Assembly (NCBI GenBank): GCA_001771275.1
Contig: METE01000004.1
Span: 97,073 to 135,786, forward strand
Direction of reading: 5' to 3'
Length of the DNA stretch: 38,714 nucleotides
From: a candidate division Kazan bacterium RIFCSPLOWO2_01_FULL_48_13
GTDB taxonomy: Bacteria; Patescibacteriota; Kazan-3B-28; UBA10110
The translations under genes and the position numbers were made by a program. Within the stretch, counting starts at the first letter, position 1. Each line of letters begins with the position of its first letter. Below the pieces are notes generated by a model. The model was given only the letters and a program-made list of their open reading frames with translations. It was not told the DNA's origin and did no database searches. Positions 1,338 to 34,152 of the stretch are shown here, in pieces.

Positions 1338-2125
1338 ATTGCGATTAGGTAGTCTCTATCGCTCCCCACTGGACATGCGTGTCTAACGCATCCAGCGAGT
1401 CTCTTTGTCTAATCCATTTGATTTTTGCGACTCCTTCTGATGTCAGATGTTCCTTGCGCGCCATCATAGTGGCTACTGTGCAGAACTTCTCGAACTGCCA
1501 GATTTTCTTAGCCTGCAATGGATATCTCTGGAAAAATGGTATCACTTTGCCAGCGATATCAGACAAATTACTGACCTTGTACTTTACATGCGGCCGCCAT
1601 TTATCATACCGTTGATAATTCAGGTGATAAATTTTACCGCAGCCAAGAACATCTTTAATTTGTTGAAGGATTGCTTCATCATCTTCTCGAAGTTCAATTT
1701 CGAACAATAATCGAACTTCCGCCAAAGCATCACCGTTCTTGTTGATAGTAATGCTAAAGCATCCTTCCCCATCAACGAAACCGACAATGTAGTTTGGATC
1801 AAGCATTGAGTTCACCCCTTCGTCTGCTTTAATTATAAGGCAAACTACTATGGGATCAGCTGACTTCCTATCGGCGCTTACCAACTACTCCTTGCCAATA
1901 GGATCTCCCTGGGTTACGCATCAGGCTATTTCTGACATTCCCACGCGGGCTCAAGCGATGTTTCTTCCCCTGTGTACACGACAAGGTCGAAACGCCCTTT
2001 AATGCGTAAGACTATCATTCGTATGTTGGACCCTTCAGGCTTGCCCTTACGGGAGAAGCCCTGTCCTCAACTATAAAGTCGGATTTACACCGACTAGTCC
2101 GATGCGCTGCCAGGCGCATTTATTT
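1338..2125 (-). mobile_element. 788-nt intervening sequence in the 16S decoding-centre sequence (E. coli about 1396/1397), carrying a LAGLIDADG gene; intron class unresolved
   Basis: The universal CUUGUACA|CACCGCCCGU sequence is split. The exon resumes at 1337 (gacgggcggtg, 1327-1337) and stops at 2126 (tgtacaag). Group-I-like strings are present (GACUA...UAGUU, GAUAGUC, AGAGACUA), but the boundaries are not U|...G|. Confidence 0.7.
1345..1806 (-). CDS. LAGLIDADG homing endonuclease, single-motif (I-CreI-like size)
   Basis: The motif YIVGFVDGEGCF is present. The ATG at 1806 is preceded by AAGGGGTGA. The longer track ORF (to 1884) starts further upstream without an SD. The stop is TAA at 1345-1347. 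The gene lies entirely inside the 16S insert. Confidence 0.8.
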   Translation of the reverse strand: MLDPNYIVGFVDGEGCFSITINKNGDALAEVRLLFEIELREDDEAILQQIKDVLGCGKIYHLNYQRYDKWRPHVKYKVSNLSDIAGKVIPFFQRYPLQAKKIWQFEKFCTVATMMARKEHLTSEGVAKIKWIRQRDSLDALDTHVQWGAIETT

Positions 2126-2561
2126 TGTACAAGACCCGAGAACGTATTCACCGTAGCATGGCTGATCTACGGTTACTAGCGATTCCGGCTTCATGCAGGC
2201 GGGTTTCAGCCTGCAATCCGAACTGAGACCGGTTTTCAGGGATTAGCTCCACCTCGCGGTTTGGCTACCCTCTGTGCCCGGCCATTGTAGCATGTGTGTC
2301 GCCCAGGCCATAAAGGCCACGCTGATTTGACGTCATCCCCGCCTTCCTCCTTGTTAACCAAGGCAGTCTCGTGTGAAAAATACAACACACAATGGGGGTT
2401 GCGCTCGTTACCCGACTTAACGGTACACCTCACGGCACGAGCTGACGACAACCGTGCAGCACCTGTCTATGCTGTCTCGAAAGAGGGCTCAAGTTTCCTT
2501 GAGCTTGCAACACGATGCAAGACCTGGTGAGGTTCCTCGCTTAGTATCGAATTAAACCACG

Positions 2562-2604
<43 letters not shown>

Positions 2605-2718
2605 TAACCTTGCGGCCGTACTCCCCAGGCGGGATACTTAACGCGTTAGCTACGGCACTGAGGGGACCGATGCCACCAATGCCTAGTATCCATCGTTTAC
2701 AGCGTGGACTACCGGGGT

Positions 2719-3734
2719 CAAACAGTATATTACTATACAGATTGGACTATATCATTCTCTGAACTTTGCTCTTTGTAGTTTTTCCACTTGGCTTTCTTCA
2801 GTTCATAGTACTGTTGCACTATTTCCAAAGAAAACTTAGAAAGAGCCGCGACTTCAGAGATCCAGCGTTGTTGAAGTTGATGATTGTGATACAGAAGAAT
2901 AAATTTTGGGATCATTTTTTCCACCGCCAGATGCGGTAGAATAATTCGCAGAAGTGATTGCAGTTGCTCGGAGGAGTTTAACCACAGCCGCACCTGATCA
3001 GGCCTTTGCCTGTTCTTGGGGGCGACAGTTGTCTCAATCTGCCAAACCACCTTCAAGTATTTCTGGAGTAAAGTTACACCCGGTTTGGTAAAACCATCCG
3101 TACAAATTACCCCTTTTCTGCCGTTAGCTATTATTGAGCCATCATCTTGCCACCAAATGGCCAGGGACAACGGGGTCAATAAATTAAGCCACTTCCTTCT
3201 GATCAAGAATTTACCGTGAGGATGAGTAAGTTTATAAAGTTCGGTGAGCGCTGGCAAAGCCAGGCTTTGGTACCTCCACTTTATTTTTCCCCATCCGTCT
3301 CGACCGTCCTTTGTTTGCCGCCACGAATTATTCTGAGAAGAGATTTCATTCAATTGTTTTACTTTCCAATCAAAGTAGCTCTTCTGTTTTTCGGAATGGC
3401 GAAACGAAAAACGGGCATTCACATAGGTCCGATGGACTTTTAACGATCCATCACCTAATATCGAGCCGAAAATAATCGCTCGAGCCGTTTCAGACAAGGG
3501 TATGATTTGCCTCATAATTTTGCAATTAATTGCTATACCCTCTGTCACAGTCAACTTCATAGTCTCTACGGGGTCAATACACGCTACGCGCGTACGACTT
3601 CCCTCGGGATTGTCCATCACGGGCCGGTAACCCGAATGTAATGGAGTTTCCCCGATACAGCTGAATGCTCATCTCGACGTCGCCGCCGAGAGGGACACCC
3701 TTCGTCACTATATTTAATGAGCGGTGACGGATTT
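2719..3734 (-). mobile_element. 1016-nt intron in 16S at the 785-806 site (E. coli about 794/795), carrying a double-motif LAGLIDADG gene
   Basis: GGAUUAGAU|...|ACCCCGGUAGUCC is split. Exon 1 ends in U and the insert ends ...CUGUUUG (omega-G-like, complement of c2719). It shares the 16-nt string CCCCGUAGAGACUAU-type P7 motif with the 1000-1252 intron (3559-3574 = 1069-1084). Confidence 0.8.
2733..3620 (-). CDS. LAGLIDADG homing endonuclease, two-motif (monomeric type); start uncertain (GTG 3620, ATG 3617 or ATG 3560)
   Basis: Motifs are IIFGSILGDGSL and LAIWWQDDGS. The stop is TAG at 2733-2735, only 14 nt before the intron 3' end. Confidence 0.8.
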   Translation of the reverse strand: MMDNPEGSRTRVACIDPVETMKLTVTEGIAINCKIMRQIIPLSETARAIIFGSILGDGSLKVHRTYVNARFSFRHSEKQKSYFDWKVKQLNEISSQNNSWRQTKDGRDGWGKIKWRYQSLALPALTELYKLTHPHGKFLIRRKWLNLLTPLSLAIWWQDDGSIIANGRKGVICTDGFTKPGVTLLQKYLKVVWQIETTVAPKNRQRPDQVRLWLNSSEQLQSLLRIILPHLAVEKMIPKFILLYHNHQLQQRWISEVAALSKFSLEIVQQYYELKKAKWKNYKEQSSENDIVQSV

Positions 3735-4125
3735 ATCTAATCCCGTTCGCTCCCCACGCTTTCGCTCCTTAGCGTCAGAAATGGCCCAGCAGACTGCCTT
3801 CGCCTTTGGTGTTCTTCTCGATATCTACGGATATTACCCCTACACCGAGAATTCCATCTGCCTCTACCATTCTCAAGATCAGCGGTTTCGAACACCCTTC
3901 TCCGGTTGAGCCGGAGTCTTTAATGTTCGACCTACTGGTCCGCCTACGAGCGCTCTACGCCCAATAAATCCGGATAACGCTCGAGCCCTACGTATTACCG
4001 CTGCTGCTGGCACGTAGTTAGCAGGCTCTTATTCTTACGGTACCGTCATAATCTTCCCATAAAAAAGAGGTTTACAATCCGAAGACCTTCATCCCTCACG
4101 CGGCATTGCTGCGTCAGACTTTCGT

Positions 4126-4188
<63 letters not shown>

Positions 4189-4614
4189 CTGGCTGGTCAT
4201 CCTCTCAGACCAACTATCGATCACAGCCTTGGTAGGCCATTACCCTACCAACTAGCTAATCGAACGCAGGCCACTCCTTGGGCGATAAATCTTTACTCAG
4301 CACTTATTTCAACAGACTAAAAATTAATCCACTGAAATAAGTGCTGAGACTATCGAGAATTATCCTGCCTTTCGGCAGGTTATGCTCGACCCAAGGGTAT
4401 GTTCCCACGCGTTACTCAGCCGTCTGCCGTGCACCCGAAGTGCACTCGACTTGCATGTGTTAGGCATGCCGCCGGCGTTAATCCTGAGCCAGGATCAAAC
4501 TCTCAAAAAAGTGAGTTCAGACTGCATAGCAGCTGACATCACTAAGAGTTAATCCACCCATCTCCAGTTTTGGAAAACTGGGGATGGGGAAATTGAATTT
4601 GAATTGATTGTGAG

Positions 4615-8625: not shown

Positions 8626-9714
8626 TTAGAGCTCTTCGCCCAAGTCTTCGAGCAGCCGTTTTTGTTTGAGGGTCAGGTGTCTTGGAATAACGATCTCAAC
8701 TTTAACAAACAGATCGCCGTGGCCAGTTTGATCCAACCGGGGCAGGCCCTTGCCGCGCAATCTAAATACCTCTCCACCACCCGTTCCCGCCGGGATCTTT
8801 AAAGTCAGCCGTTCATCCAACGCATCGATCTTGATCTCCCCGCCCAGTACTGCTATGGGGTAGCTTAATCCCTCAGTGCGATAGAGATCGGCTCCCCGTC
8901 GTTCAAACCGCGAATCAGACAGCACCGTTACTACTATATATAGATCGCCGGATCGACCGCCACGCCAGCCCACTTCACCCTGGCCCGATAGTTTAATGGT
9001 TTGATTACTGTCAATTCCGGCGGGAATATCGACCTCGATGGTCTCTGACTTAGTTACCTTGCCATCGCCTCGGCAGGTCCGGCAGGCTTTAGCCGGTTTC
9101 TTACCGGTTCCCCGGCAGGTATCGCACATCTGCACCTGCGCAAAGGTGCCCAAGATGGTTCGCCGATTAACCCTGAGCTCGCCGTGGCCACCGCACTTAT
9201 CGCAAGTGGCCAGCTTGCCATCAGCAGCGCCACTACCGTGACAAACCTCGCAGATCCGAGAGCAATTGATCCCCATTTTCTTTTTGACGCCCTTGGCGGC
9301 TTCCGCGAAAGTCACTTGCAGGTGTCCCTCAATATCGCTTCCCCGATGAGCCTGTTCCGGGTTTCTCCGGCGCCGACCGCCGCCGCCAAAGAAAGCATCA
9401 AAGATATCTTCGAATCCTGCCATATCACCAAAATCTTGTGTAAAGCGAGAAAAATCTTCCGGCCTAAATCCGGAGAAGCCGCCGCGGGTGCTGCCATCAA
9501 AGGCTTGGCCATATTGATCGTACTGACGACGCTTAGATTCATTACCCAAAACCTGGTAAGCCTCATTTATTTCTTTAAATTTCTTCTCCCCCTCGGCATC
9601 CCCCTTGGTTTTATCCGGATGGTACTTTAAAGCCAGCTTGCGGTAAGCCTGCTTGATCTCCTCAGCAGTCGCTCCCTTGTTAATCCCTAATATTTGATAG
9701 TAATCTTTTGCCAT
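8626..9714 (-). CDS. dnaJ: Molecular chaperone DnaJ
   Basis: J domain (YYQILGI...HPDK), a G/F region, and four CxxCxGxG-type zinc motifs. Confidence 0.95.
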   Translation of the reverse strand: MAKDYYQILGINKGATAEEIKQAYRKLALKYHPDKTKGDAEGEKKFKEINEAYQVLGNESKRRQYDQYGQAFDGSTRGGFSGFRPEDFSRFTQDFGDMAGFEDIFDAFFGGGGRRRRNPEQAHRGSDIEGHLQVTFAEAAKGVKKKMGINCSRICEVCHGSGAADGKLATCDKCGGHGELRVNRRTILGTFAQVQMCDTCRGTGKKPAKACRTCRGDGKVTKSETIEVDIPAGIDSNQTIKLSGQGEVGWRGGRSGDLYIVVTVLSDSRFERRGADLYRTEGLSYPIAVLGGEIKIDALDERLTLKIPAGTGGGEVFRLRGKGLPRLDQTGHGDLFVKVEIVIPRHLTLKQKRLLEDLGEEL

Positions 9715-11334: not shown

Positions 11335-13257
11335 TTATTTCTGCTCTTTATCGTCGCTTTCGCTAAATTCTCCCTCTTTGGCGTTATCGGCGCCAGTGTC
11401 TGTTTTGGGCTGATCACCACTGCCATTGGGCGGCTCCGGCTGCTTATACATCGCTTCGCCCACTTTAGACAGCGTAGTCGATAGCTCTTCAGTCGCTTTC
11501 TTTAATTCATCTGTTTTGTCGGTATTAAGCAGGTCCTTAACAGCTTTAATCTTGGCTTCGATGTCCGTTTTGAGCGTGGCATCTACTTTATCGCCCGCGT
11601 CTTTCAGCGCTTTTTCCGAAGCATAGACCAAACTATCGGCTTGATTCTTAACATCAACCTTTTCGCGTTTAATCTTATCTTCAGCCGCATATTTCTCCGC
11701 TTCCGCCGCCATCTTGGCTACCTCTTCTTTCGATAAGCCGGATGAAGCCGTAATTGTAATCTTCTGTTCTTTACCCGTAGCCTTATCAACCGCCTTCACA
11801 TTAACAATGCCATTAGCATCGATATCAAAGGTGACTTCAACTTGAGGAACCCCCCGAGGCGCGGGAGGAATGCCATCCAATATAAACCGACCTAAGGTTT
11901 TGTTATCCCCCGCCAATTCCCGCTCCCCCTGAACGATATGGATCTCTACCGAGGTTTGGTTATCAGCCGCGGTCGAAAACACTTGAGATTTACTGGTCGG
12001 AATAGTGGTATTGCGCTCAATTAGTTTTGTAGCTACCCCACCCAAAGTTTCGAGACCAAGTGATAGCGGAGTTACATCCAACAACAGTACATCTTTTACA
12101 TCACCCTGCAGTACGCCGCCCTGGATGGCGGCGCCGATCGCCACCGCTTCATCCGGGTTAACGCTCTTATTCGGTTCTTTGCCAAAGAACTTCTTAACTG
12201 TCTCGACCACTAATGGCATCCGTGTCATCCCGCCAACTAAAATCACTTCATCAATATTCGAAGTGCTTAAACCAGCGTCTTTCAATGCCTTCTCCATTGG
12301 CGGAATGGTGCTTTCCACCAAATCACCCACTAACTGTTCTAACTTAGAGCGAGATAATTTCATTACCAAATGCTTCGGGCCAGATTCGTCTGCCGTTACA
12401 AATGGAATGTTAATCTCGGTTTCAGTTGAGCTGGAAAGCTCTTGTTTGGCTTTCTCGGCGGCTTCTTTTAGTCGCTGGAGGGCCAATTTATCATCGGCCA
12501 AATTAATTCCCTGATCTTTTTTAAATTCATCGATGATCCAGCTGATCACTCGCTGGTCAAAATCATCACCGCCCAAATGAGTATCGCCGTTAGTGGCCTT
12601 AACCTCAAAGATGGATTCCCCGCCACTATCCCCGATCTCCAAAATAGAGATATCGTAAGTACCACCACCCAAATCATAGACGGCTACCTTCTCATTCTTC
12701 TTATTATTTTTATCCAAACCGTAAGCTAAAGTCGCCGCGGTTGGTTCGTTGATGATCCGCTTAACATCAAGTCCTGCGATTTGGCCGGCGTCTTTAGTGG
12801 CTTGGCGCTGCGAATCGTCAAAGTAAGCCGGTACAGTAATCACTGCTTCTGTAACTGGCTCACCCAAATAGGCCTCGGCGTCTCGTTTGATCTTTTGCAG
12901 CACCAGAGCCGAGATCTCTTGGGGAGTATAATCCTTGCCGCCCATCTCCACAGTAGTTCCACCGTGAGCAGCCTGTTTCATCTTATACGGCATCAGTTTT
13001 ACATCTTTTTGGGTCTCTGGGTCGTCAAATCGCCGACCGATAAACCGCTTTACCGAAAACACGGTGTTATCCGGATTAGTGACCGCTTGCCGTTTGGCCA
13101 GTTGCCCAACTAATGTATCCCCCGCCTTGGTGGAAGCAATTACCGAAGGTACTGTCCGACCGCCCTCGCTACTGGGAATTACTTCTACCTTGCCGCCGCG
13201 CATAACAGCTGAAGCGCTGTTGGTTGTCCCCAAATCGATCCCAATGATTTTATTCAT
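11335..13257 (-). CDS. dnaK: Molecular chaperone DnaK (Hsp70)
   Basis: [18 protein letters not shown] and the full Hsp70 architecture; 640 aa. Confidence 0.97.
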
Positions 13258-21160: not shown

Positions 21161-21250
21161 CCGTGGGGAGCATAGATTGGCAATCCTACCAACCTTTGTT
21201 TTTTGGATTTTCGTATTCACATTTTTATATTTGATTCTTGTTGGGCTGAT

Positions 21251-21323
21251 GCTGATGCGACCCGATGGTACGGGCGTTCGGCTCATAACCGAAAGGCTAT
21301 GGGTTCGAATCCCATCATCAGCA
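21251..21323 (+). tRNA. tRNA with CAU anticodon (Met or lysidine-modified Ile2); no encoded CCA
   Basis: Acceptor GCUGAUG/CAUCAGC, anticodon arm UUCGG-CUCAUAA-CCGAA, T arm AUGGG-UUCGAAU-CCCAU. The D stem is weak. Confidence 0.75.
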
Positions 21324-21330
21324 TTTTTTT

Positions 21331-21406
21331 GGCGATGTAGCTCAGAACCCGGCAGAGCGCTCGGCTCATAACCGAGAGGTCGCGGGTTCGAGTCCCGCCA
21401 TCGCCG
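21331..21406 (+). tRNA. tRNA with CAU anticodon (Met or Ile2); no encoded CCA
   Basis: Acceptor GGCGAUG/CAUCGCC, D arm GCUC...GAGC, anticodon arm CUCGG-CUCAUAA-CCGAG, T arm GCGGG-UUCGAGU-CCCGC. Confidence 0.85.
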
Positions 21407-21486
21407 TTCTTTGAAAATTCTTATTCTGTGTTATATTTTTTGGCTCTTCTGGGCGCGGAATGCGTTGAAGAGCACAGGAGTTTGAG

Positions 21487-26922: not shown

Positions 26923-26997
26923 GCCAGCGTAGCTCAGTGGTAGAGCAGTGGACTCATAAGCCATTGGTCACAGGTTCGAATCCTGTCGCTGGCACCA
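26923..26997 (+). tRNA. tRNA-Met (CAU), CCA encoded
   Basis: Acceptor GCCAGCG/CGCUGGC, D arm GCUC-AGUGGUA-GAGC, anticodon loop CUCAUAA, T arm ACAGG-UUCGAAU-CCUGU, followed by ACCA. Confidence 0.88.
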
Positions 26998-27120: not shown

Positions 27121-27346
27121 TCCGCCATCCGCCAGAGCCCAAGGCTCCCCTTTGGGGCTGGCGGAGGCGGACTGAAAACACTTTACTGGGCCAAAGGCCC
27201 CCCTTTGGGGCCGTAGGCTTATAAATAACTTACGACACAGCCCTCCGTAGTCCGTCAGCTGACGGACGGAGGATGGGTTCAGGATCCAGGCCTAGATTCC
27301 TCGAATCCCCAGCATTCTCTGGGCAAGCAAGTCCGGGGATGACCAA
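27121..27346. repeat. Cluster of nested GC-rich hairpin modules (same family as 9738, 14514, 15211 and 17618)
   Basis: It contains tccgcc...ggcgga hairpins, the 32-nt module at 27188-27219 (= 17695-17726), ccctccgtagtccgtcagctgacggacggaggatggg (27241-27277, also in 28686-28722 and 30124-30160), and the end ggggatgac. Confidence 0.75.
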
Positions 27347-27788: not shown

Positions 27789-27968
27789 CTCAGTTATAAT
27801 AAAAACTGATTAGTCTGATTTACTCAAACTAATCAGTTACTCCCCAAAAAACAGTATTTGATATTTTCTATTTGATATTAATTTGGGTCTGTAGCTCATC
27901 CCCGAAGGGGCCCCTGTGGGGTGGTGAGTAGTCCAATTATTAAAATAATAGAGTTCGCCTCCTCGGGT

Positions 27969-28040
27969 GGGCCTGTAGCTCAGCGGTAGAGCAGCCCCCT
28001 CATAAGGGGTTGGCCCTTGGTTCGATCCCAAGCGGGCCCA
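27969..28040 (+). tRNA. tRNA with CAU anticodon; no encoded CCA; flanked by complementary leader and trailer
   Basis: Acceptor GGGCCUG/CGGGCCC, D arm GCUC-AGCGGUA-GAGC, anticodon arm GCCCC-CUCAUAA-GGGGU, T arm CUUGG-UUCGAUC-CCAAG. The leader ctcctcggg (27959-27967) pairs with the trailer cccgaggag (28041-28049). Confidence 0.85.
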
Positions 28041-28069
28041 CCCGAGGAGCGAGAGCCTTCTTTCAAAGT

Positions 28070-28159: not shown

Positions 28160-28234
28160 CGCGGGGTAGAGCAGTAGTAGCTCGCCAGGCTCATAACCTG
28201 GAGGTCGTAGGTGCAATTCCTACCCCCGCTACCA
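28160..28234 (+). tRNA. Initiator tRNA-fMet (CAU), CCA encoded
   Basis: CGCGGGG-UA-GAGC-AGUAGUA-GCUC-G-CCAGG-CUCAUAA-CCUGG...CCCCGCU-A-CCA. The 5' CGCGGGG...GAGCAG...GCUCG and the mismatched 1:72 pair mirror the E. coli initiator. Confidence 0.85.
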
Positions 28235-28561: not shown

Positions 28562-28646
28562 AATAATTCCTTTATAAATTAATGTGCTCGGTCCCCTACT
28601 CTTATTTTACCAAAAAATCAGGCCAAACTCGGTCTTCATAGCTATT

Positions 28647-28745
28647 TGGCTCCCCAGCTCGGTTCGGATTGCATTCCTACGCCAGCCCTCCGTAGTCCGT
28701 CAACTGACGGACGAAGGATGGGAGGAGATAATCTGGGACTTTCGA
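28647..28745. repeat. Cassette-boundary repeat, copy A (filled with a 45-nt hairpin module)
   Basis: 28655-28745 is identical to 30093-30183 over 91 nt. It lies just 3' of the minus-strand gene 28801-29826. Confidence 0.85.
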
Positions 28746-28800: not shown

Positions 28801-29826
28801 CTACGATCTCTCAACATGCCGAACCATAAAATTGACCGTTTCGTTCACATTAACCGGCTCAATTACAATATTCGGATGTTTATTTTGAAAAATTCGGAAT
28901 ATTTCATCAGCAAAGGCCTGCCCAATATTTGGCACCTTTTCAAAATCCAAGACGATCCTTTTGAACTTGTCTAAGCCGGTTAAGATCCGCCGCGCTTGAG
29001 ACCTCGAAACATAGACCGTCCCCATGGTGAAAAGCCTGACATGAATTTCAGTTTTATCAAAAGCATAGCTCCCCGGTTTGGACTGATACTTTTCAAAAAT
29101 CTTATTAAGATGTCTATCACTATTCCGACTAATTGAAAAGACAACTCGAGTTCCCCTAATAGATGTTTCAGTCTTATTGAAAAAAATATCTGGAATGATA
29201 TTGTCCACTACCATCTCGTATCCAAAGCTCTCGAGTGCAAATCTATCAGCCGCCTGGGATGTAAAGAAAATTCCTTCGCCTGTGTGAGCTTTCGGGTCCG
29301 TTGTCAATTTCCCCTTCAATAAGTCTTGCATGGCCTCCAATTCTAACTTTAGCCCCCTTTCTTTCATCACTTTAAGAAAGACTCCCACACCAAAGTCCTG
29401 TACGCTAAACTTAATTTGGTCTAATGCGTCTTCTAACTGAACTTCAATGAGCTTCGATCCGGAGTGTTCGATAGCATTATTTAACATTTCTGAAAAAGCA
29501 TAATGGACAATACTTTTAACATTCTCCGGAGCTGTGCGGAAAGCTGGACAAGCGTCAATCAAATTATCAAATACTTCGTGCTCTTTGATGTCTCGGTTGA
29601 CCAGCTTTTTGGTAACGGCCGAAGCACCAATCTTATTAATCAAATCGGGTAAGGTGTAAAAAGCTGCCCTCGTAGAACCAAATTTCACTACTTTCCCTTC
29701 GTTGACTAGGATACGTAAAATCTGGCTAGCTCGTTGTCTGCTGAACTGAAAATTCCTAGCCACCTCGGGAGATGTCACCCGTTCCTTTTCTCGAATAAAT
29801 TCAGTTACCTGAGATTTGATATCCAT
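28801..29826 (-). CDS. wHTH + histidine-kinase-like ATPase (anti-sigma/RsbW-like) + C-terminal STAS-like (DUF4325-type) protein
   Basis: N-terminal wHTH (SPEVARNFQFSRQRASQILRILVNEGKV). N-box-like EMLNNAIEHS and G1-like QDFGVGV. C-terminal block RRILTGLDKFKRIVLDFEKVPNIGQAFADEIFRIF. The gene is AT-rich. Confidence 0.6.
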   Translation of the reverse strand: MDIKSQVTEFIREKERVTSPEVARNFQFSRQRASQILRILVNEGKVVKFGSTRAAFYTLPDLINKIGASAVTKKLVNRDIKEHEVFDNLIDACPAFRTAPENVKSIVHYAFSEMLNNAIEHSGSKLIEVQLEDALDQIKFSVQDFGVGVFLKVMKERGLKLELEAMQDLLKGKLTTDPKAHTGEGIFFTSQAADRFALESFGYEMVVDNIIPDIFFNKTETSIRGTRVVFSISRNSDRHLNKIFEKYQSKPGSYAFDKTEIHVRLFTMGTVYVSRSQARRILTGLDKFKRIVLDFEKVPNIGQAFADEIFRIFQNKHPNIVIEPVNVNETVNFMVRHVERS

Positions 29827-29928: not shown

Positions 29929-30084
29929 ACGGTGATTTAGGCACCTCGGTCACTTTACTCGTTTTTGTTTGGCCCCGTTAGCATTCCTTACTGTAAAACG
30001 GATTCCATCCTGTTATTACAGTAGCGTCAGCTCCGGGACGCACCTGTCTGGCTCTTCTGTCGGATGACAGATGTCGCCAACATG

Positions 30085-30210
30085 TGGCTCAACAGCTCGG
30101 TTCGGATTGCATTCCTACGCCAGCCCTCCGTAGTCCGTCAACTGACGGACGAAGGATGGGAGGAGATAATCTGGGACTTTCGAAAGGGAGCTCGGGTAAG
30201 TGGGTCAGTT
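30085..30210. repeat. Cassette-boundary repeat, copy B (filled)
   Basis: The left part equals copy A. The right part, aagggagctcgggtaagtgggtcagtt, equals copy C. It lies just 3' of the fic gene. Confidence 0.85.
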
Positions 30211-30296: not shown

Positions 30297-31184
30297 CTAT
30301 TTGCCCTCAAAATCCTCGCTGATCTTCCAAACACCCTTTTCTCTGAAAGCAGGAATATTCTGTCGGCGTGCGGCATTTGTGATTGCGGATGCAGATTTAG
30401 CGTGGCTTTTTGTGTATTCGGAAAGCCGAATAACTTTGCCGCCTTTGAGATACGTAATGCGCTTATGAAGCGACTCCATCAAGCCAAGAGAGACTACCTT
30501 TTCAAGAGTTTTGGTATTTTTGTCGTCACGATAATCGCCAAAGGACTTGTAGTATTCTTTTTTCTCACGGTCCCGAATGATAATAATCGGGAAACCGAGA
30601 CACTGAAGCTGGTAAGAGATCAACACGCGGCCAATACGACCGTTGCCATCGCAGAACGGATGGGTAGTTTCAAAATCCAAATGGAACTTGGCAATCTTGT
30701 CTAAAAAGTAAGCAGACATATCGCTCGTATATTCGGTGATAGTAGAAGCAATCAGTTTCTCCACTTGTTCCGGAGCAGGAGCAACGTGCGTACCGACTCG
30801 GACATATTCGCCCGGGCCACGAAAGCGTCCAGCGATCTTGTCATCAATACCGCCAATCAGCATCTGATGCAAAAGTAATATAAGCTCCCTGTTTACTTCC
30901 GTCTCTTTTGATTTGGTGCGAATGTAGTCGATAACTCGAGCGAGATTTTTTGCTTCATACACTTCACGCAAAGAAACACCTCGAGCGACCTCCATATCCA
31001 AAAGAATCTTCTCGGTCTCCTTGAGAGTGAGGGTGGAGTTTTCAATAGCGTTGGAGTTGTAAACACTCTCCGATACTTCCACCTCATCGATCATGACCAA
31101 AAGCGAATCCTTGCCTTTGCGGAGGACGTCATACTGGGCCTTGAGAGCCTGAATCCGATCTTTGATTGGTTTTGTTATAGCCAT
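30297..31184 (-). CDS. fic: Fic family protein (AMPylase-type), class II with an N-terminal inhibitory helix
   Basis: Catalytic loop HPFCDGNGRIGR (HxFx[D/E]GNGRxxR). An upstream S-N-A-I-E-N matches the [S/T]xxxE[G/N] inhibitory motif. There is a C-terminal HTH-like tail. Confidence 0.85.
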   Translation of the reverse strand: MAITKPIKDRIQALKAQYDVLRKGKDSLLVMIDEVEVSESVYNSNAIENSTLTLKETEKILLDMEVARGVSLREVYEAKNLARVIDYIRTKSKETEVNRELILLLHQMLIGGIDDKIAGRFRGPGEYVRVGTHVAPAPEQVEKLIASTITEYTSDMSAYFLDKIAKFHLDFETTHPFCDGNGRIGRVLISYQLQCLGFPIIIIRDREKKEYYKSFGDYRDDKNTKTLEKVVSLGLMESLHKRITYLKGGKVIRLSEYTKSHAKSASAITNAARRQNIPAFREKGVWKISEDFEGK

Positions 31185-31585: not shown

Positions 31586-31605
31586 TGGCTCCCGGGGTCG
31601 GACTC
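31586..31605 (-). repeat. Direct copy of the last 20 nt of tRNA-Asn (T-loop to CCA)
   Basis: tggctcccggggtcggactc is identical to 33651-33670 and 33435-33454. Confidence 0.9.
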
Positions 31606-31783: not shown

Positions 31784-31866
31784 TGGCTCAACAGCTCGGT
31801 CCAGATTGCATTCCCAAGGAGATAATCTGGGACTTTTGAAAGGGAGCTCGGGCAAGTGGGTCAGTT
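31784..31866. repeat. Cassette-boundary repeat, copy C (unfilled)
   Basis: It matches copy B on both sides but has 'ca' where A and B carry the 45-nt hairpin module. It lies 3' of the DGR template repeat. Confidence 0.8.
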
Positions 31867-31935
31867 ATGGAATCTTGAGAGAAAGGAACAAACAAAAACT
31901 CTCCCGACCAGAAAGTCGAGAGAGAAACGAAGAGA

Positions 31936-32072
31936 GTTGCGGCGACGGAAGACAAAGCGGTTGTTGCCATTCCAGTGGTTGTCGGGGTTGTCCCAATTCG
32001 TATTGAGCCAACGGTCGTTGTCGTCGTGTTCGACGTTGAACACGTTCGGATTGCCGTCGGAATCGGTATTGT
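31936..32072 (-). repeat. DGR template repeat (TR), including a 3' IMH*-like segment (31936-31955)
   Basis: See the VR feature. The coding-strand adenine-rich copy translates as ...NTDSDGNPNVFNVEHDDNDRWLNTNWDNPDNHWNGNNRFVF with many AAY codons. It is not preceded by a credible gene start. Confidence 0.9.
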
Positions 32073-32330
32073 GCGAGATATTATCCATAAGCACCACCCC
32101 TTGATTCTACTTTTGTGGCAGAAGTCTTAGAGTTGAATTTTATTCGGCATCTATAATGCCTGAATATCTCGCACCAAGTATCTTCATTTTTTGAAGTTTC
32201 TGCATACAACCTCTATTCCAAACCTTAGTCGGGAATACTCTCATTGTATGGATACTGGGTTCGGCAGCCAGAAACCTTGATCGCTGGCATATTCGCCTAG
32301 TTCCATGAATAGTTTACCAAATTTGAAACA

Positions 32331-32362
32331 TAAAAAGAGGCCGTGCTCCGGAGAGCACGGCC
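32331..32362 (-). terminator. Rho-independent terminator of the DGR target gene
   Basis: ggccgtgctc-cgga-gagcacggcc (32339-32362), followed on the minus strand by tcttttta. Confidence 0.65.
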
Positions 32363-32426
32363 AAAGGACAAAGGGTCAAGGGTCAAGGACCCAAGAGAAC
32401 CATGGGTCCAAAACCCAAAGTCCAAG

Positions 32427-33113
32427 TTACTTGCGACGCAGGAACACCCAGCGGCCGTCGCCATCCCAGCGGTAGCCGGGGCGGGCCCAACGCGTATAGA
32501 GCCAACGGACGCGGTCGGCGTGCCCGACGCTGAACACGCCCGGACGGCCGTCGGAAGCGGTAATGGTCTCCATCGCCATGATGAGGACCTCGCCGACTGG
32601 CTGGTCAGGGTACTGCTTCCGTAGTTCGGGGCCAGCCCAAGCTGGAATGAGCTCACCGTTCACGTTATGAATACCTTCGTAGATCTCCGCCGTGGTCGGT
32701 CTCTCTTTGCTAGTCAGCTCCGTACCAGAAGCGATGACCAGCTCCAGGGTAGTGATGTCGAAGCCCTTCTTGAAGCCGGCCTTCTTCATGATATCAGCCG
32801 CCCAGTCGCCGATTCGAAAGCCACCCGCCTTCAAATCGGCAGTATAGCTATTGGCATCGTCGCAGGTACGGGTCAGCACCTTCCACGTCGGTCGCTGTAT
32901 CAGGGGGAGACGCAGAGCCTGTTCCTCGGCCAGACGGCTGAGGAAGCTGTACCACTCCTCGCTGAAATTGGGGTGGCCCATAGCCAACTGCGCCCGTTCT
33001 GTGCCACCCTTGTACTTGCGGGTGGCATCCTCGACCTGTCGGCCGAGCTGTCTGGCCACACCATCCGAGGTGGGCTGAGTTTCGACAGTTCCAGAAGTAC
33101 TCTGATTTGACAT
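32427..33113 (-). CDS. DGR variable (target) protein, 229 aa, with VR at the C-terminus
   Basis: The ATG at 33113 has AGGAG 7 nt upstream. The track ORF runs to 33209 without an SD. The last about 45 codons are the variable repeat. The stop is TAA at 32427-32429. No signal peptide was seen. Confidence 0.8.
   Translation of the reverse strand: MSNQSTSGTVETQPTSDGVARQLGRQVEDATRKYKGGTERAQLAMGHPNFSEEWYSFLSRLAEEQALRLPLIQRPTWKVLTRTCDDANSYTADLKAGGFRIGDWAADIMKKAGFKKGFDITTLELVIASGTELTSKERPTTAEIYEGIHNVNGELIPAWAGPELRKQYPDQPVGEVLIMAMETITASDGRPGVFSVGHADRVRWLYTRWARPGYRWDGDGRWVFLRRK
32430..32566 (-). repeat. DGR variable repeat (VR), including a 3' IMH-like segment (32430-32449)
   Basis: Hand alignment of 32450-32566 with TR 31956-32072 (constant offset 494, no indels). 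All 79 positions that are not A in the TR coding strand are identical. Of the 38 TR adenines, 27 are substituted in the VR. The next 20 nt are 13/20 identical, with mismatches at non-A positions. Confidence 0.9.
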
Positions 33114-33434: not shown

Positions 33435-33612
33435 TGGCTCCCGGGGTCGGACTCCGTCCGTCAGATGACGGACTAGAACCGGTCGGGGTTCGGGCTGCCT
33501 CACCCCTCTTCAGAACCTTGCGGTTCCGACGCCCGCTAAAGCGGTCTGCCTCCACCACGGGAAAACTCCCGTTTTCCCGACCCCTTTCCCACGGTTCGAG
33601 TCCAACCACAAA
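33435..33612 (-). other. Degenerate tRNA-Asn-like / structured RNA segment ending in the tRNA-Asn 3' terminus
   Basis: It ends with the 20-nt tRNA-Asn 3' copy (33435-33454). The T loop is interrupted by the hairpin cgtccgtcagatgacggac. Upstream are several GNRA-type hairpins (ggaacc-gcaa-ggttc). There is no intact cloverleaf. Confidence 0.4.
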
Positions 33613-33650: not shown

Positions 33651-33725
33651 TGGCTCCCGGGGTCGGACTCGAACCGACAACCAATCGCTTAACAGGCGAT
33701 CGCTCTGCCATTGAGCTACCCGGGA
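33651..33725 (-). tRNA. tRNA-Asn (GUU), CCA encoded
   Basis: UCCCGGG-UA-GCUC-AAUGGCA-GAGC-G-AUCGC-CUGUUAA-GCGAU-UGGUU-GUCGG-UUCGAGU-CCGAC-CCCGGGA-G-CCA. Confidence 0.9.
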
Positions 33726-33774: not shown

Positions 33775-34152
33775 TCAGGTAGTGGGAATTTTGGCTACCA
33801 TTTTGTTTTTGATCGTCGCCAGTATTTTAACGATTTCTTGGCCCTCCGTAAATACCTCATCCAGAGCAGAAAAATCCAATAACTTTCTACCCCTCAGTAT
33901 CCTTAACCAATACAGGGTTTCTTTGGCTTCTTTAAGGCTAATTGATAATTTGTGGATAAAATCCCGGTCCGACTGGGCCTCGCTGGCTTCCATCATATTA
34001 GCAGCGATCGAAGTAGCCGAACGCACCAACTGGCCAATCAGGGGACGCGATTTAAAATCCAACGCCACACCGTCAGTCAATGTCAGGACCAGATTAGCGA
34101 ACACCTCGCAACGATCATAGATATCAATTTTACTTCCCGCTCTTTCCCCCAT
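33775..34152 (-). CDS. Four-helix-bundle protein (23S rRNA intervening-sequence protein family); candidate DGR accessory protein Avd
   Basis: IGQLVRSATSIAANMMEASEAQSDRDFIHKLSISLKEAKETLYWLRIL is the family signature. It is on the same strand as the target and TR, 0.66 kb upstream of the target gene. It is flanked by CCAAT/ATTGG-rich inverted arms. Confidence 0.6.
   Translation of the reverse strand: MGERAGSKIDIYDRCEVFANLVLTLTDGVALDFKSRPLIGQLVRSATSIAANMMEASEAQSDRDFIHKLSISLKEAKETLYWLRILRGRKLLDFSALDEVFTEGQEIVKILATIKNKMVAKIPTT

Follow-up and report, generated by a model that had tools for sequence, protein, structure and literature searches.

The 38,714-nt stretch analysed here (hereafter the window; contig METE01000004.1, positions 97,073 to 135,786, of candidate division Kazan bacterium RIFCSPLOWO2_01_FULL_48_13) carries a diversity-generating retroelement (DGR) locus that is probably a recently disabled Patescibacteria (candidate division Kazan) cassette, from which avd and the reverse transcriptase (RT) gene have been lost and in which the variable repeat (VR) is now frozen. 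This reading is built on the repeat pair formed by the VR and its template repeat (TR), on the family of the target protein in which the VR lies, and on comparison with intact relatives of the cassette, in particular a locus termed L009. The repeats and the target gene are located as follows.

31956-32072, minus strand: TR, defined by ungapped alignment; one position differs from the TR of L009.
32450-32566, minus strand: VR, defined by alignment with the TR; in relatives the TR-matching stretch runs about 20 nt further, to about 32430.
32427-33113, minus strand: DGR target gene encoding 228 aa, from the open reading frame (ORF) and its translation; the protein is helical in its N-terminal part and ends in an alpha/beta domain at the C-terminus.

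TR and VR align on the minus strand over 117 nt with 0 gaps. Every non-A position of the TR is the same in the VR (79/79, comprising 37 C, 25 G, and 17 T), and 27 of its 38 adenines are substituted in the VR (A>G 15, A>C 8, A>T 4), with 11 kept. The computed alignment thereby confirms the coordinates and counts that a first-pass annotation had read from this DNA; mismatches at non-A template positions, named there as the observation that would speak against a DGR, number zero. If 27 mismatches were placed randomly, the probability that all would fall on the 38 adenines among 117 positions is 4.9e-18 (hypergeometric). The pair was also picked up independently by a repeat finder, and the non-A scaffold of the TR, scanned against both strands of the window, matched only the TR and the one VR. 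As had been proposed, the VR forms the C-terminal end of ORF 32427-33113 (codons 183-221 of 228), and the TR read in the VR frame is rich in AAY codons, with 12 of these and 25 A-containing codons that permit about 1e22 amino-acid combinations. All 20 changed VR codons are non-synonymous. The two 5'-most mismatches (32072 and 32069) are both in codon 184, which reads AAT in the TR and ATT (Ile184) in the VR. Since Ile184 is found in 61 of the 62 aligned family members, these two mismatches probably sit outside the functional VR, giving a conservative count of 25/25.

The locus thus displays TR/VR differences restricted to template adenines, a VR at the 3' end of the target gene, and AAY-rich template codons, as DGRs do. 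That this adenine-specific pattern was written by mutagenic retrohoming, as the first-pass annotation held, is supported by the pattern together with the relatives: the TR is 99% identical to that of the RT-bearing L009, and variability among 62 homologues of the target protein tracks the TR adenines. In these 62 members, mean column entropy is 2.41 bits for VR codons that contain A in the TR versus 0.88 bits for non-A VR codons (Mann-Whitney p = 4.6e-5); by this measure, the hypervariable codons across the homologues are those with A in the TR. Near-invariant scaffold residues of the family are S187, G189, F194, V196, W204, L205, P212, and W216.

The target protein has 14 close and 1451 profile-level homologues, and the named ones all belong to Patescibacteria. 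It contains no Pfam domain, signal peptide, or transmembrane segment, and no Pfam domain is present among the 120 homologues listed of the 1451. Moreover, a Pfam search of 62 family members, a PDB profile search, and a search of a viral fold library yielded no usable match. In this the protein agrees with targets of DGRs in the candidate phyla radiation (CPR), which are described as being without recognisable domains (PMC8144416, PMC5758913). An AlphaFold (AF2) model (pLDDT 92, pTM 0.80) predicts three N-terminal helices and an alpha/beta domain, with the VR forming the last beta-hairpin and loops. When the model is compared with the PDB by Foldseek, C-type lectin carbohydrate-recognition domains (CRDs) make up 9 of the 11 top matches, all weak (E 0.3-1.4, TM-score 0.31-0.44), and none of the top 50 matches is a known DGR variable protein.

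Intact relatives of the cassette (L007, L009, L011/L012, L041, and L042) share the order target gene, TR, bAvd on the opposite strand, and RT, and in L008 this order holds up to the contig end. Their RTs are 336-345 aa long with LGNLTSQ and YADD motifs, and their TR/VR pairs likewise differ by A-only mismatches. L009 has in common with the window the syntenic genes for DnaG, sigma-70, a PF05635 protein, and tRNA-Asn, and its cassette is 90.7% identical to window 33440-31890. Beyond this point L009 continues with a specific segment of 1.44 kb that encodes bAvd (PF22296, 41 bits) and a DGR-type RT, where the window has only 22 nt.

31868-31890: deletion junction; homology to L009 stops at 31890 (L009 11210) and restarts at 31867 (L009 12678).

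The stop at L009 11210 lies just past the terminal hairpin of the TR, while homology restarts at 12678 in a repeat that is shared with window 31867-31784. Five independently assembled contigs (L001-L005; one NCBI metagenome-assembled genome (MAG) and four ENA assemblies, from different samples) span the TR, the junction, the repeat, and the Fic gene with 100% identity at the junction. As all five cross it unchanged, the missing 1.44 kb is not an assembly error; junction, TR, and VR are the same in six independent assemblies.

No RVT_1 domain and no YxDD or [ILV]GxxxSQ RT motif is present in the six frames of the window, no RT or cassette Avd was found in the 10 kb beyond its right end (sequence from sister contigs), and the bAvd (PF22296) of L009 and L007 has no counterpart in the window. 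The TR at this locus therefore stands with neither an RT nor a cassette Avd; the minus-strand genes downstream of it encode a Fic protein (30297-31184) and an HATPase/DUF4325 protein (28801-29826), and no RT. Thus, of the proposal that the locus is a BPP-1-type DGR, the part that holds is the DGR-made TR/VR signature, whereas the system is not complete, the 1.44-kb avd-RT segment of L009 being missing. ORF 33775-34152 encodes a PF05635 four-helix-bundle protein, a distant relative of Avd, and was rejected as the cassette Avd: its L009 orthologue adjoins sigma-70 while the L009 cassette has a separate bAvd of its own, so that we treat the ORF as a backbone gene. Compared pairwise with the L007 Avd, its product shows no similarity.

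Two contigs, L043 (5012-6690) and L047 (241-924), bear members of the target family but no TR or RT. These members may be either retired or remote targets, and they show that DGR parts have been lost more than once in this family. The L043 members are tandem paralogues of the target, and L047 241-924 is syntenic with the intact DGR of L007.

The TR is embedded in an RNA gene of about 400 nt, which consists of a structured 5' domain, the TR, and a 3' stem-loop. Its elements, together with the terminator that precedes it, are the following.

32339-32362, minus strand: terminator-like hairpin and U-run after the target gene, dividing it from the DGR RNA gene.
32143-32299, minus strand: core of the conserved structured 5' domain (covariance model R1, 186 bits).
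32073-32172, minus strand: closing helix of the 5' domain, in which GCGAGATATT (32163-32172) pairs with GATAATATCTCGC (32073-32085); abuts the 5' edge of the TR.
32092-32103, minus strand: conserved CAAGGGGTGGTG box within the closing-helix region of the 5' domain.
31925-31935, minus strand: downstream duplex strand TCTCTTCGTTT, predicted by folding to form an 11-bp duplex with the upstream AAATGAAGATA (32179-32189).
31899-31924, minus strand: terminal stem-loop and U-run, kept with compensatory changes among relatives.

The 230-280 nt between terminator and TR are 84-99% conserved among cassettes versus 74-84% for coding sequence, and this conservation extends even to L013, whose TR is of another type. 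RNAalifold predicts nine helices in which 98% of cells are paired. Compensatory changes occur in 18 of 66 pairs versus 6.0 +/- 1.8 in shuffled alignments (0/500 shuffles reach 18), and the 66-pair model retains at most 4 compensatory pairs when the pairing partners are slid; the closing helix (helix 7) contributes four pairs with such changes. Covariance model R1 also matches three divergent Berkelbacteria DGR loci. With these added, double-sided changes are seen in 25 of 49 pairs versus 12.4 +/- 2.2 shuffled and 5-9 slid, and the 11-bp duplex between upstream and downstream strands is partly kept in the divergent loci, with one compensatory pair. The structured domain (window 32073-32310) is further found in L007, L008, L009, L011, L013, L026, L031, L033, L041, L042, and L049. 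The window retains the structured RNA 5' of the TR and the 3' stem-loop typical of this Patescibacteria cassette family (the window, L007-L009, L011, L013, L041, L042, and L049). Rfam 15 gave no match to the 5' domain, and a literature keyword search returned nothing relevant on the structure of CPR DGR RNA. The 5' domain is probably the RT/Avd-binding scaffold of the RNA of this DGR clade. A reading of the TR as a small ORF starting at an ATG at 32087 was rejected, as L007 has no start codon at this site and the nucleotides are conserved as a helix.

The one part of the TR that departs from the family is its 3' end.

31936-31955, minus strand: aberrant TR 3' end TTGTCTTCCGTCGCCGCAAC, with 8/20 non-A differences from the VR; equal to the VR in intact relatives.

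The first-pass annotation had noticed non-A differences in the 20 nt past the repeat and taken them for the distinction between IMH and IMH* (initiation of mutagenic homing) known from BPP-1. The differences are real, but they are not the normal state of the family: in L007, L008, L009, L011/L012, and L042, TR and VR are the same or one base apart for about 20 nt further (CTGGGTGTTCnnnCGTCGC), and the window TR is the outlier. Lineage-specific variants of this 20-nt stretch co-vary between TR and VR in the relatives, indicating that it is homogenised together with the rest of the TR. Consequently, the reading as IMH and IMH* is not supported. From 31955 on, the window TR is only about 60% identical to L009 versus about 99% upstream, and the patch 31936-31955 encodes the RFVF ending found in other family members; it looks like a recombination patch. 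A restored, VR-like form of the patch would read CTGGGTGTTCCTGCGTCGCTAC. The VR of the window carries no copy of the patch, and the simplest reading of this is that no retrohoming has taken place since the TR 3' end was replaced. Two hairpins lie 3' of the VR (32403-32417 and the terminator-like hairpin at 32339-32362), for which a role in directionality is only a candidate.

On this evidence, the history of the locus may be sketched as follows. The intact cassette would have comprised the target gene, the separately terminated RNA gene of about 400 nt, an opposite-strand bAvd gene, and a DGR RT. The RT-Avd complex would have copied the TR RNA into complementary DNA (cDNA), misincorporating opposite adenines, and replacement of the VR by this cDNA would have produced the 27 A-to-N differences. 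The 1.44-kb avd and RT segment would have been lost afterwards in the window lineage, and the still-intact target gene would then encode one fixed variant of a normally hypervariable binding surface. As the locus holds no enzyme, its VR is most likely frozen, and because non-A identity is complete and the TR region is 99% identical to an RT-bearing cassette, the loss should be recent. Neither TR nor VR varies among six assemblies, which stem from at least four studies, and the 90%-identity cluster of the target protein is a single sequence on 7-10 contigs. Ongoing diversification of the VR was thus not seen, in a test that is weak since it compares consensus sequences of near-clonal populations.

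Searches for an RT elsewhere bear on the same point. The L009 RT, compared with 5.8 billion proteins, found nothing more than 76% identical besides itself. No RT of the window organism is among the top 120 matches, outside which RTs less than about 56% identical would fall, and the sole Kazan match belongs to another MAG (A3K24 vs A2810). A scan of genome contigs with the L009 RT returned 27 loci, none from the MAG of the window, which may be outside the collection. Scanning metagenomes with the VR scaffold, with N at the TR adenines, recovered only the contig of L009 itself; that collection evidently does not contain the window lineage, and the scan therefore says nothing about VR variants.

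Several observations weigh against a frozen VR. The six assemblies are nearly clonal, with 0-4 substitutions outside Fic and a short variable patch at 33559-33580, so that their shared consensus VR says little against activity at a low level. Two DGR loci in one genome are frequent among relatives, while the RT search covered the window plus 10 kb, and an RT less than about 56% identical to that of L009 would escape the protein search among the matches listed. The DGR RNA gene is fully intact, and its covariance model score of 186 bits is as high as at RT-bearing loci. Both this intactness and the 79/79 identity would also be expected from continued activity in trans. The main alternative is that the cassette is still active as an RT-less satellite, made up of a target gene and a DGR RNA gene, on which the RT-Avd of another DGR in the same genome would act in trans; we regard this as unlikely but well worth considering. 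In BPP-1, avd-TR-brt supplied on a plasmid functions in trans, and some DGRs have targets that are not adjacent (PMC5758913). Among relatives, OY968788.1, RA.bin10, and SMAG_U14554 each have two RT loci, and the flanking RNA elements are conserved over cassettes with different TRs, so that a paralogous RT could plausibly recognise the RNA of the window; the perfect non-A identity fits as well. Such service is, however, at odds with the absence of an RT within about 49 kb, with the protein search, in which no RT exceeds 76% identity to that of L009 and none of the top 120 matches comes from the window organism, with a VR that is the same in all assemblies, and with a TR 3' patch that was not copied to the VR though this stretch is homogenised in relatives. 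We give small credence to a broader version, in which functional, enzyme-less satellite cassettes with short repeats at their ends would be exchanged horizontally among Patescibacteria at a tRNA-Asn hot spot, diversified in trans, and moved independently of the RT, and in which, as a separate matter, the 5' RNA domain would represent a DGR RNA architecture permuted relative to BPP-1.

Two further explanations carry very little weight against the probable loss of avd and RT. The missing RT could be an assembly artefact, a collapse or mis-join at the repeat beside the TR, given that 84-130-nt repeats adjoin the junction and several assemblies break near 33500-33600. The five contigs (L001-L005) that independently span TR, junction, repeat, and Fic, identical at the junction, make this very improbable. 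That TR and VR are an ordinary diverged duplication, whose mismatches came to lie on adenines by chance or because of a mutational bias unrelated to DGRs, is scarcely credible: nothing speaks for it beyond the existence of a repeat, whereas the probability of about 5e-18, the 99% identity of the A-rich copy to the TR of an RT-bearing cassette, and the family-wide variability tracking the TR adenines all contradict it.

Comparison with L009 further reveals that the cassette is a mosaic. Over window 33254-31955 (L009 9861-11151), segments of 99-100% identity lie on either side of one of 500 nt with 81-84%. Identity is about 99-100% in the 5' half of the target gene, the TR 99.1%, and the 282 nt upstream of the TR 98.9%, while the segment of about 81-84% corresponds to the C-terminal half, including the VR, and the 3' untranslated region. 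Between the two genomes, identity is only 70% for the sigma-70 genes versus 90-100% for the cassette, from which we conclude that the cassette has been exchanged horizontally. The mosaic implies that this exchange of cassette parts was recent, and a hot spot linked to tRNA-Asn appears to be where Patescibacteria lineages exchange DGR cassettes.

31784-31867, minus strand: lineage-specific intergenic repeat bounding the cassette; other copies at 30082-30210, 28644-28745, and 27238-27277.
33435-33454, minus strand: 20-nt copy of the tRNA-Asn 3' end at the upstream edge of the cassette; second copy at 31586-31605.
33651-33725, minus strand: tRNA-Asn gene.

The repeat is a direct repeat of 84-130 nt with GAGCCA at its end, and a copy comes after every minus-strand gene between 27 and 33.5 kb, namely the target gene with the TR, Fic, and HATPase/DUF4325. 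In L009, the whole DGR cassette lies between two identical 107-nt copies (9575-9685 and 12658-12764). The repeats give the region a cassette-like organisation. No integrase is encoded in the window. An interpretation of the repeats as tRNA-like or integron attC-like sites was rejected, with ARAGORN and Rfam negative and modest fold z-scores (-1 to -2.2). The two extra copies of the tRNA-Asn 3' end bracket the remnant and look like decayed att sites of tRNA-integrated elements. Between tRNA-Asn and its DGR cassette, L009 carries a 6.5-kb island with an Eco57I-type restriction enzyme. In the window, a short segment separating tRNA-Asn from the cassette (33501-33591) varies among assemblies (L001, L002), and several assemblies end here, which suggests population heterogeneity at this junction. 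L005 equals the window across the DGR remnant and has 62 mostly third-codon differences in the 3' half of Fic (30314-30702), suggestive of allelic replacement through recombination.

The window is a piece of CPR chromosome, and proteins encoded immediately outside it bear the NCBI name 'candidate division Kazan bacterium'. Its remaining part contains dnaJ, grpE, hrcA, lepA, ftsH, dnaG, and the sigma-70 gene. Its 16S rRNA gene (2075-4510, minus strand) spans 2436 nt versus 1533 nt in the model, the extra length coming from an inserted sequence with a LAGLIDADG_2 endonuclease gene (2733-3620). Immediately downstream of the 16S rRNA gene, in window 1345-1902 (minus strand), a group II intron D1-D4 match (1815-1902) overlaps a LAGLIDADG_1 ORF (1345-1884). 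A 7-kb stretch of the plus strand contains five different tRNA genes whose anticodon is CAT (21250-21407, 26923-26997, 27968-28043, and 28160-28234), the one at 28160-28234 resembling an initiator. With mutual identities of only about 60-70%, they are not recent duplicates.

As an instance of a DGR in a CPR genome, the locus is ordinary, a known kind of system that is common in the group; DGRs are abundant in CPR bacteria (PMC8144416, PMC5758913). It is of interest as a decay intermediate, for what it reveals about cassette exchange, and for the RNA domain. Since surveys for DGRs take the RT as their starting point, they overlook cassettes without one. The window locus stands between intact cassettes and the family members in which the target gene alone remains (L043, L047). 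It places the presumed RT loss in the recent past and would show how a hypervariable protein becomes fixed in a single state. Of the by-products, the most useful is the covariation-supported RNA domain 5' of the TR, which is absent from Rfam and could guide work on template recognition by CPR DGR RTs.

Among known systems, the DGRs of CPR/Patescibacteria (RT clade 2, Roux et al, 2021, PMC8144416; CPR set with unclassified VR types, Wu et al, 2018, PMC5758913) come from the same host group. Like them, the family described here has small targets without recognisable domain, signal peptide, or transmembrane segment and a C-terminal VR templated by AAY codons, and the RTs of the relatives are about 340 aa long with LGxxxSQ and accompanied by an Avd-like accessory gene. 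Unlike them, the window locus is without RT and Avd. The variable surface also invites comparison with DGR proteins of the C-type lectin fold (Mtd, TvpA, AvpA, TaqVP; PMC5006420, PMC6328139). The target protein has no sequence or Pfam similarity to these, and its best PDB matches are C-type lectin CRDs at a weak level (E 0.3-3, target-normalised TM-score 0.40-0.44); as in those proteins, the modelled VR occupies a C-terminal beta-hairpin and loops.

With the prototype BPP-1 (mtd, avd, TR, brt), the locus shares adenine-specific mutagenesis from TR to VR and a VR at the 3' end of the target gene. By analogy, the pairable flanks of the template RNA may correspond to the avd:Sp 'cPRT stop' duplex (bioRxiv 10.1101/2023.10.23.563531). 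In contrast to BPP-1, the relatives encode avd on the opposite strand in the space separating TR from RT, the TR is preceded on its 5' side by the large structured RNA domain whereas the BPP-1 scaffold Sp is 3' of it, and TR equals VR through the GC-rich 3' end in this cassette family, with no separate IMH/IMH* stretch visible there. Moreover, the window target is not a phage tail fibre, and no RT is present at its locus. In DGRs with remote targets or trans components (PMC5758913), a VR can likewise be diversified without an adjacent RT. In the cases described, however, it is only additional VRs that are remote and the TR remains beside the RT, whereas in the window the TR has been orphaned along with the VR.

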